IMG/VR virus record: IMGVR_UViG_2585427730_000006
Coordinates: 1-31,472 of that record
DNA: 31,472 bases
Reading direction: 5' to 3' (one strand)
Source of the DNA: a virus
Lineage: Duplodnaviria > Heunggongvirae > Uroviricota > Caudoviricetes
The notes under the pieces were generated by a model. The model was not told where the DNA came from, ran no database searches, and saw nothing but the letters and a program-made list of their open reading frames with translations. Position numbers and translations under genes: made by a program. Below, in pieces: positions 10,344 through 10,497 of the stretch (the stretch's first letter is position 1; every line of letters starts with the position of its first letter).

Positions 10344-10419
10344 GCCGACTTAGCTCAGCAGGCAGAGCAACTGACTTGTAATCAGTAGGTCACCAGTTCG
10401 ATTCCGGTAGTCGGCACCA
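10344..10419 (+). tRNA. tRNA-Thr (anticodon UGU)
   Basis: Hand-folded cloverleaf: 7-bp acceptor stem GCCGACT/AGTCGGC, D stem GCTC/GAGC, anticodon stem ACTGA/TCAGT with loop CTTGTAA, T-loop TTCGATT, encoded CCA. Confidence 0.85.
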
Positions 10420-10422
10420 TAT

Positions 10423-10497
10423 GCGGGTATCGTATAATGGCTATTACCTCAGCCTTCCAAGCTGATGATGCGGGTTCGATTCCCGCTACCCGCTCCA
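10423..10497 (+). tRNA. tRNA-Gly (anticodon UCC)
   Basis: Acceptor stem GCGGGTA/TACCCGC, anticodon stem TCAGC/GCTGA with loop CTTCCAA, T arm GCGGG-TTCGATT-CCCGC, encoded CCA; sequence resembles T4-type phage tRNA-Gly. Confidence 0.85.

Follow-up and report, generated by a model that had tools for sequence, protein, structure and literature searches.

A host-derived tRNA-Thr/tRNA-Gly pair as the probable core of a compact expression module in the late region of a lambdoid E. coli prophage

That prophages may carry tRNA genes between the antiterminator gene Q and their lysis genes became clear with the genomes of the Shiga toxin (Stx) phages 933W and phiP27. In 933W the order is Q, pR', terminators, 'pT', ileZ, argN, argO, stx2AB, STnc100, an esterase gene, S and R, with 'pT' annotated as a putative tRNA promoter, and in phiP27 a Q-like gene is followed by L22, a TrmB-like gene, a methylase gene, ileZ, argO, stx2eAB, two holin genes and an endolysin gene. 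Lambdoid late operons also give rise to short transcripts close to their promoters, among them the 6S RNA of lambda, which runs from pR' to tR', and StxS in Stx phages, and promoter-cargo-terminator units are known as phage 'morons'. The prophage small RNA (sRNA) STnc100 and its PasD relatives lie near Q and the esterase-holin-lysozyme genes, and their functions are unproven (Zhu, Shabalina and Storz, bioRxiv 10.64898/2026.05.13.724894; PMC12370729). The present study concerns 31,472 nucleotides (nt) of Caudoviricetes DNA, IMG/VR record IMGVR_UViG_2585427730_000006, hereafter the window, in which a tRNA-Thr(UGU) gene and a tRNA-Gly(UCC) gene stand in tandem at positions 10344-10497 (features lie on the + strand unless stated otherwise). 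Our reading, to which we assign a probability of about 0.6, is that this is a functional-looking, host-derived Thr-Gly pair that forms the core of a compact expression module and adds isoacceptor dosage.

The layout around the pair is that of the Stx phages. The early part of the window runs from hok/sok through DUF968 and RusA to a Q antiterminator gene of the PF06530 type (6685-7038, Pfam E = 1.2e-43, supported by RefSeq), a reverse-strand open reading frame (ORF) of 427 amino acids (aa), a small TrmB-like ORF and an N6/N4 DNA methyltransferase gene directly upstream of the module (9129-10175; PF01555, E = 5e-45). Then come tRNA-Thr, tRNA-Gly, 747 nt without ORFs and a lysis cassette of two holin genes (11245-11637, PF16931; 11627-11905, PF05449) and a GH108 endolysin gene (11907-12452, PF05838 and PF09374), all supported by RefSeq, and beyond the endolysin gene iss/bor, terminase, head and tail genes. 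The methylase gene is 87-90% identical at the DNA level to those of phiP27 (87%) and Stx2c phages. The original prediction had suggested that the pair occupies the slot of the Stx-phage tRNAs, and this is borne out: the tRNAs lie on the late strand of a lambdoid prophage, with Q on one side and the lysis genes on the other, and in phiP27 the homologous TrmB-like and methylase genes lead through ileZ-argO-stx2e to the same holin-holin-endolysin series, 933W being arranged alike. As in the Stx phages, the tRNAs are tightly packed, with Q upstream and the holin and endolysin genes downstream, and 'pT' of 933W is analogous to a promoter candidate in the window. The gene content differs. Unlike the Stx phages, the window has no Ile or Arg tRNA (none of ileZ, argN and argO; only Thr and Gly) and no toxin genes, although in relatives of this prophage ileZ-like and argN-like genes stand in front of this very pair. 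The window tRNAs are near-identical to host genes, whereas phiP27 argO and the argN-like scaffold of the relatives visibly differ in sequence. Because the architectures of phiP27 and 933W equal that of the window, the comparison supports the view that the Thr-Gly pair with its ORF-less RNA region takes the place of the Ile/Arg tRNAs, toxin and sRNA of the Stx phages.

ARAGORN calls exactly two tRNAs in the whole window, with their anticodons at position 34. The tRNA-Thr gene (10344-10419, anticodon tgt) and the tRNA-Gly gene (10423-10497, anticodon tcc) score 69.8 bits (E = 1.8e-13) and 65.6 bits (E = 2.6e-12) against Rfam RF00005, whose gathering score is 29, and both align over its full length (1-71 of 71). 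They are separated by the three nucleotides TAT (10420-10422), each ends in an encoded CCA, and the identical 154 nt carry tRNA-Thr and tRNA-Gly labels in RefSeq NZ_CP025916.1, so that the coordinates, anticodons, gap and CCA ends originally predicted all agree with these calls. By alignment, tRNA-Thr shares 74/76 positions with K-12 thrU and 55/76 with thrT, and tRNA-Gly shares 73/75 with K-12 glyT. Two D-loop changes (U16C and U20C) set the former apart from thrU, and a single compensatory acceptor pair (C6:G67 to U6:A67, pairing kept) sets the latter apart from glyT. The anticodon stem-loops and acceptor identity positions are near-identical to those of the two host genes. When the 154-nt pair was searched against 5426 complete E. 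coli genomes, 5421 matched, in two pieces at the thrU-tyrU-glyT-thrT-tufB operon. With this operon the pair shares 97% tRNA-body identity, the relative order of Thr(UGU) before Gly(UCC) and the encoded CCA. Unlike it, the pair lies in a prophage late region, has the two D-loop changes in Thr and the compensatory pair in Gly, and carries a 3-nt spacer where the host has tyrU with spacers of 8 and 116 nt. The genes tyrU, thrT and tufB and the host promoter region are absent beside it, and blastn-short found only chance 7-10-mers as homology to the host-operon flanks outside the mature tRNA bodies. The near-identity to thrU and glyT in the same order as in the host operon argues for a host origin, and to judge from the alignments the pair is clearly descended from the enterobacterial thrU-tyrU-glyT-thrT-tufB operon, with tyrU and the host flanks lost. 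The original prediction took identity to host genes as the mark of an attachment-site remnant. The near-identity was found, but the remnant was not: each gene is full-length and sits some 10 kb into the prophage, between methylase and holin, no host flanks accompany them, and sequenced phage genomes carry the pair too. Host identity and phage carriage are therefore a false dichotomy, and an attachment-site remnant is excluded by internal position, completeness and the absent host flanks.

Upstream of the pair, a pattern scan yields a candidate sigma-70 promoter at 10255-10282, with the -35 hexamer TTGAAA (10255-10260), a 16-nt spacer and the -10 hexamer TAATAT (10277-10282), which predicts a transcription start at about 10289-10291. 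At or near this predicted start lies a leader motif, GGTTCCGAAGGGG (10291-10303). In 32 fetched loci the pattern GGTTCYGARGGGR was found a single time per locus and, where the context is readable, at a fixed short distance 5' of tRNA-Thr. Among prophages that are otherwise mosaic, the shared sequence begins before the tRNA. We compared the footprints of 'Thr-Gly only' modules from 20 distinct contexts representing about six lineages. These modules share a motif in their upstream AT-rich block, ATTTACAnAnCTTGAY; in the window it takes the form ATTTACAAATCTTGAT (10228-10243), is kept in most of the lineages despite differing upstream genes, and may be an UP-element or a protein-binding site. Across lineages the -35 element follows TTGnnn (TTGAAA, TTGCGA, TTGCTC, TTGAAG or TTGAGG) and the -10 element TAtnAT (TAATAT, TATCAT or TATTAT), and the spacer between them is constant at 16 nt in length but unrelated in sequence. 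An invariant GGTTCYGARGGG follows 7-8 nt past the -10 element, 50-56 nt before tRNA-Thr in 19/20 contexts. The 168-nt block of the window that contains these elements (10176-10343) is 98% and 95% identical to blocks in two other loci (L050 and L061), where it starts about 157 nt after a PF06323-type Q gene, and in E. coli W a homologous block comes after a DUF1133/PF06530 Q-like gene. This conserved footprint of a putative sigma-70 promoter upstream of the pair is new here. A decayed upstream tRNA was considered as the source of the leader motif and rejected, since neither convincing homology to the ileZ/argN cluster nor an Rfam tRNA signal at E <= 10 was found.

Directly downstream of tRNA-Gly lies what we regard as the most interesting by-product of this analysis, a new and unannotated structured RNA that abuts the tRNA and is supported by covariation. 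The 388 nt from 10498 to 10885 fold on the + strand with -155.3 kcal/mol, compared with -109.3 +/- 6.2 for shuffles (z = -7.5), and on the opposite strand the values are -110.3 kcal/mol and z = -5.8. RNAalifold places 106 pairs in 13 helices on an alignment of 13 sequences, in which 98.0% of cells are paired, against 40-50% with partners slid. Double-sided changes are found at 11 pairs, compared with 4.2 +/- 1.3 in shuffles (none of 500 reaches 11) and 2-4 when slid, and the covariation score is 0.141 versus 0.03-0.06 when slid. The element consists of a 5' domain (10498-10709, helices 1-6), which includes a long hairpin of about 90 nt at approximately 10617-10713, and a 3' domain of about 175 nt (10710-10885) that ends in an intrinsic terminator (10856-10882, stem AACCGCC/GGCGGTT followed by eight T, from a pattern scan). 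The terminator stem (helix 13) is conserved in 13/13 aligned homologues with near-complete pairing. The untranslated 359 nt that remain before the holin gene (10886-11244) are less structured by the same measure (z = -2.5) and include another terminator-like hairpin (11205-11226). The window shares the final 90 nt or so before the holin gene with phiP27. Homologues of the element, 76-95% identical, begin right after tRNA-Gly in 47/76 loci and likewise in both SerU-LTIIb copies, E. coli W and one prophage of an enterotoxigenic E. coli (ETEC). In the E. coli genomes sampled, the position is unannotated save for an occasional 'hypothetical protein'; a pseudogene in the ORF-less 747 nt is rejected by a frame scan, with stops throughout all six frames and a longest ORF of <=59 aa. 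Element matches were also recorded on plasmids in 40 of 570 places, and one of these, IncF plasmid pCeylon31IncF (L138, NZ_CP076271.1, about 30984-31437), has a fragment of the element with a degenerate 'tRNA-OTHER' upstream, between insertion sequence (IS) elements.

No Rfam family matches the downstream element at its gathering threshold, AgvB, AsxR and Esr41 give nothing at E <= 1, and matches to miRNA precursors were dismissed as chance that reflects the shape of the long hairpin. Rfam STnc100 (RF02076), however, aligns over its full length (1-206) to 10686-10885 with 19.9 bits, and the alignment shares an outer helix and the hairpins CCUCAGUGCGAGG and CGGGRGGCACCCG. Bona fide STnc100 copies, scoring 53-55 bits, lie about 265 nt past the same tRNA-Gly in two other loci (L075 and L062), and 933W has its STnc100 75 nt after stx2B (207.7 bits). 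A covariance model, R1, built from the 3' domain of window-type sequences only (alignment A6), matches these bona fide copies full-length and in register, with 38.8 bits (E of roughly 3.5e-8) in L075 and 37.3 bits in L062 (the two E-values lie at about 1e-7 to 1e-8), and gives 18.7 bits with the STnc100 of 933W at a rough E of about 0.007. Homology is thus reciprocal, and the position is the same. Because R1 recovers the STnc100 copies full-length and in register, the 175 nt or so at 10710-10885 are, on the evidence of covariance models and position, a divergent STnc100-family RNA. No known relative of the 5' domain (helices 1-6) was found. As with STnc100 and PasD, the RNA is intergenic, lies on the late strand past phage tRNAs and before the lysis genes, and ends in an intrinsic terminator, and with STnc100 it has core motifs and a multi-hairpin layout in common. 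Unlike STnc100, it has an extra 5' domain of about 190 nt and abuts tRNA-Gly rather than lying between stx2B and the esterase gene. The preprint on these sRNAs takes tRNA hits near Pas and STnc100 sRNAs for integration-site remnants (bioRxiv 10.64898/2026.05.13.724894). In the loci that we examined, the tRNAs beside such RNAs are phage-borne genes, and the integration-remnant reading may therefore need revisiting.

The value of extra Thr(UGU) and Gly(UCC) copies would lie in codon supply. In E. coli, thrU and glyT are single-copy, no other tRNA reads ACA or GGA, and the two decode ACG and GGG as well; a single chromosomal copy of each is consistent with the E. coli genome matches. Codon counts were taken from 35 genes of the prophage (7972 codons) and, as the host reference, from 21 core genes of its host strain (6391 codons). 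Per thousand codons, prophage and host core have 11.8 and 7.4 ACA (ratio 1.60), 19.2 and 10.3 ACG (1.85), 11.8 and 7.2 GGA (1.63), and 16.6 and 8.0 GGG (2.06), each difference at p < 0.01. Of the Thr codons in the AT-rich genes at the left, 32% are ACA, compared with 15% in the host. The original prediction proposed to look for ACA and GGA enrichment in the AT-rich cargo genes. Over the prophage genes compared, the four codons of the pair are enriched 1.6-2.1 fold, and ACA is especially enriched in the AT-rich cargo genes, which lends modest support to codon supply. Since seven of the ten most enriched codons (AGG, AGA, GGG, ACG, AUA, GGA and ACA) are decoded by the four-tRNA cluster of the relatives, the comparison supports codon supply as the general selective logic of the cluster. 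The serum-resistance lipoprotein gene iss/bor (13141-13434, - strand), downstream of the lysis cassette, is unusually rich in codons read by the pair, GGA being 5/9 of its Gly codons and ACA 5/13 of its Thr codons.

Taken together, the module would comprise a sigma-70 promoter, a leader of about 53 nt, tRNA-Thr, tRNA-Gly, the structured RNA with its STnc100-family 3' half and the intrinsic terminator. Transcription would start from the module's own promoter, probably in the lysogen too, and Q-antiterminated read-through would be added in lytic growth. RNase P and 3' processing would free both tRNAs, and the same cuts might set the 5' end of the downstream RNA. The extra copies would then raise the supply of two single-gene, low-abundance isoacceptors, reading ACA/ACG and GGA/GGG, for phage and cargo genes; we infer the expression, the processing and the translational benefit from this arrangement. 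The module may be a moron, with a comparative promoter footprint upstream and a conserved intrinsic terminator downstream of its cargo. It would resemble 6S, StxS and the morons as a putative promoter-terminator unit between Q and the lysis genes that could be made in the lysogen and read through with Q; unlike 6S and StxS, its promoter is not directly after Q and its cargo is two tRNAs and a large structured RNA. No qut site was identified.

Several points weigh against this reading. The promoter scan overall is not above chance, with 6 sites where 8.5 are expected, and it is therefore the comparative footprint that carries the promoter argument; we infer the promoter, the processing and the co-transcription alike. 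The STnc100 match in the window, at 19.9 bits, lies below the gathering score of 47, and E-values from the R1 covariance model are rough. Since the tRNAs are nearly identical to those of the host, dosage is the only thing they could add. Q of the window is 3.3 kb away, and its Pfam type differs from that of the Q upstream of this promoter block in L050 and L061, which makes a coupling of the module to the late transcription of this phage less evident. The codon enrichment is moderate and typical of any weakly biased horizontally acquired DNA, its host background is just 21 genes (6391 codons), and AGG, AGA, CGG and TCC are more enriched still, yet the prophage has no Arg tRNA.

A more far-reaching version of the module can be put forward only tentatively, and we consider it rather doubtful as a whole. 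It holds that the tRNA pair and the RNA of about 390 nt form one autonomous unit, made in lysogens and boosted by Q, in which tRNA processing would yield the 5' end of a two-domain regulatory RNA, the 5' domain (10521-10709) being a new class of structured RNA fused to a divergent sRNA of the STnc100/PasD family. If this were true, the association of prophage sRNAs with tRNAs would reflect co-expression modules and not integration-site remnants.

The structured RNA also invites an explanation in which decoding is secondary, the tRNAs serving as processing punctuation that releases the STnc100-like RNA with a set 5' end or separates the methylase and lysis mRNAs, so that selection would act on the sRNA or on proper mRNA processing. 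The RNA begins at the 3' end of tRNA-Gly and accompanies the pair in E. coli W and the ETEC prophage as well as in the 47/76 loci, and a single promoter footprint 5' and a single strong terminator 3' bracket the module. There are tRNA-linked spacer RNAs with regulatory roles in E. coli, such as 3'ETS-leuZ. For PasA, a related prophage sRNA, release by cleavage of a longer precursor has been reported (Zhu et al., bioRxiv 10.64898/2026.05.13.724894). However, the window-type element is missing beside the pair in 29/76 loci, some with flanks too short for a verdict, and in phi467 and others. In longer clusters the pair stands together with further tRNAs that decode (ileZ-like and Arg UCU), and the anticodon loops, identity elements and full cloverleaf are kept beyond what a processing signal needs. 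We therefore regard punctuation as an unlikely primary role and prefer the dosage module.

How the alleles vary bears on a further explanation, that of counter-defence by dosage, in which the extra thrU and glyT copies would buffer the phage against toxins of the host or of competitors that remove or disable these tRNAs, for instance anticodon nucleases or toxins that acetylate tRNA. Phage tRNAs can neutralise tRNA-targeting defences, as those of T5 do against PARIS or a retron, and some GNAT toxins act on Gly-tRNA. The window alleles do carry non-host bases, at D-loop positions 16 and 20 and at the acceptor pair 6:67, and they are derived minority variants, the Thr allele being found in 15 and the Gly allele in 26 of 76 loci. 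But prophage copies elsewhere are mostly 100% identical to the host genes (Thr equal to thrU in 43/76, Gly equal to glyT in 34/76), and every common variant keeps the host anticodon stem-loop, which makes nuclease-resistant decoys impossible. We identified no system that specifically targets tRNA-Thr(UGU) or tRNA-Gly(UCC), and the neighbouring genes tested gave no defence hits. Counter-defence thus seems very unlikely to us as the reason for the pair.

The same 76 loci come from a junction pattern scan of viral contigs, which returned at least 120 stretches with the 3-nt fusion; the fusion is also found in many E. coli prophages. The spacer measures 3 nt in 75/76 viral-contig copies, an indication of a single, ancient fusion that is now carried by many E. 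coli and Shigella prophages. The common variants are either D-loop bases or compensatory (6:67 C:G to U:A in 26 copies, 49:65 G:C to A:U in 3), and stem-breaking changes are singletons only; this pattern points to purifying selection acting on the cloverleaf and lends indirect support to the tRNAs being transcribed, processed and aminoacylated. The pair stands alone in 37 loci and follows Met(CAU) in 16, Met-Lys(UUU) in 15 and Met-Arg(UCU) in 5, with a few oddities besides, and in the loci examined it is always 3' of DUF968-RusA-Q and 5' of the holin genes. The same pair is present in the isolated or induced phages phi467, vB_EcoS-683R6, vB_EcoM-606R7, vB_EcoS-689R5, PhiR47_1, JLK-2012 and SerU-LTIIb. 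Among the 5426 E. coli genomes, 95 records hold copies at least 99% identical to the window pair, the whole module occurs in 211-226 genomes, and the pair has about 1,350-1,550 matching places beyond one per matching genome, some of which are partial matches to other tRNAs. These data weigh on the idea that the pair is an inert passenger, a stretch of host DNA left as an attachment-site remnant or by aberrant excision, or a mere homology patch for recombination of prophages with one another and with the chromosome. Its near-identity to the host genes, the mosaic junctions at the module edges and the rare copies with stem-breaking mutations or altered anticodons would fit such an origin. Against it stand the complete internal genes without host flanks, the clean loss of tyrU, the retention of the fusion across at least 120 viral contigs as well as isolated phages, the purifying or compensatory substitutions and the promoter footprint that accompanies the pair, and we find an inert passenger hardly credible.

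The suggestion of the original prediction that the tRNA-Gly is T4-type, and with it the idea of phage tRNAs evolutionarily distinct from those of the E. coli chromosome, is wrong and practically untenable, because both genes are far closer to glyT and thrU (73/75 and 74/76) than to the T4-type genes of phage wV7 (Gly 65/75, Thr 62/76) and the T4 order Gly-Pro-Ser-Thr is unlike the Thr-Gly order here, although a by-eye resemblance is understandable, given a similarity of about 82-87% between the T4-type Gly and Thr tRNAs and glyT and thrU. As in a T4-type cluster, the Gly(UCC) and Thr(UGU) genes are phage-borne, tightly packed and read host-rare codons; the differences are an identity of 82-87%, the T4 set of Gln-Leu-Gly-Pro-Ser-Thr and so on, and the nature of T4 as a virulent myovirus.

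RefSeq and several GenBank phage records already carry annotations of the Thr-Gly pair, which is common and fairly ordinary and by itself matters little. In the full-text literature searched we found no paper on the prophage pair, its host origin or the module, Jobling 2016 (PMC4957749) being outside that coverage. The pair illustrates cleanly how a temperate phage takes up tRNA genes of its host and compacts them, here for the two single-gene isoacceptors that read ACA and GGA. The conserved promoter and the STnc100/PasD-related RNA suggest in addition that the tRNAs and sRNAs of this slot form expression modules.

The longer clusters show more variation. The 'Met' gene is ileZ-like, 1 nt from ileZ of phiP27, and the middle gene has an argN-like scaffold with variable anticodon loops. 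This scaffold, CCGCCACTAGCTCATC..., just upstream of tRNA-Thr (loci L014-L093), carries UCU (Arg) in 11 copies and, in 24, the loop CCUUUAA, that is UUU with a non-canonical C33, called Lys; the remaining loops are degenerate and called Phe, Leu, Val, Tyr or '???'. Such variety could be decay or diversification of a phage tRNA. On thrU-derived scaffolds, SerU-LTIIb (L003:1122-1197) has the anticodon changed from TGT to TCT with two further changes and is annotated as tRNA-Arg, and an IMG/VR contig (L082:3480-3555, - strand) has TGT changed to TTT and is called tRNA-Lys. To judge from their sequences, both seem to be Thr scaffolds that have switched anticodon in nature; a change in the opposite direction, from Arg UCU to UGU, was reportedly shown experimentally by Saks and colleagues in 1998.

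Among GTDB species representatives, the window Thr allele is found only in E. coli and Shigella flexneri, where it always lies within Met-Arg-Thr-Gly clusters, three per genome, and as mollicute chromosomal matches. A chromosomal donor of this variant was sought by a 46-mer scan of genome contigs and rejected, as only E. coli/Shigella prophage clusters and Mycoplasmopsis/Mycoplasma were returned. The first 46 nt of the window tRNA-Thr equal the chromosomal tRNA-Thr(UGU) of Mycoplasmopsis agassizii and Mycoplasma testudineum (loci L009, L010 and L012), which sits in Asn-Glu-Val-Thr-Leu clusters. Because the M. agassizii gene (L012) matches the window tRNA-Thr at just 70/76 positions over its full length, with a differing T-arm, we judge the match to be a coincidence of convergent or conserved tRNA sequence and not a transfer. 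At the Thr/Gly junction itself, the best promoter-consensus match of the region (10411-10438, 10 of 12 positions) combines a -35-like TCGGCA in the 3' end of tRNA-Thr with a perfect TATAAT in the D-arm of tRNA-Gly. Their spacing of 16 nt is a product of the 3-nt fusion; the match may be fortuitous, or it may mark an internal start from which the downstream RNA is transcribed.

A few features elsewhere in the window deserve mention. The early region holds a hok/sok type I toxin-antitoxin locus at 4494-4818, with a sok RNA of 110 bits (gathering score 59) and hokD at 4663-4818. The 427-aa ORF between Q and the TrmB-like ORF (7245-8528, - strand, GC content 0.40) belongs to phrog_5990, of unknown function, and has no match in Pfam or PADLOC; late transcription from Q would traverse it antisense, and the phage's own pR' could not be assigned on reading 7039-7244 and 8529-8760. 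At the left end, an AT-rich cluster of three genes (1618-3649, - strand, GC content 0.30-0.34) encodes a ParA-like ATPase and two unknown proteins. It gave no convincing match to a defence system, apart from one weak hit to PDC-M28B (E = 4e-5), and defence and Pfam searches of the AT-rich neighbours returned nothing beyond the ParA-like protein and PHROGs of unknown function; the cluster may be an uncharacterised cargo or defence module. The window as a whole matches a prophage of E. coli strain 120899 at 99.3-99.8% identity, but in that strain the large terminase gene is split by a 2.7-kb insertion of the IS66 family (L001 17860-20560). At the corresponding place in the window (16196-16203) the gene is uninterrupted and encodes 641 aa, and because this gene is intact and free of the IS66-family element, the window comes from a different, possibly still functional, copy of the strain 120899-type prophage.

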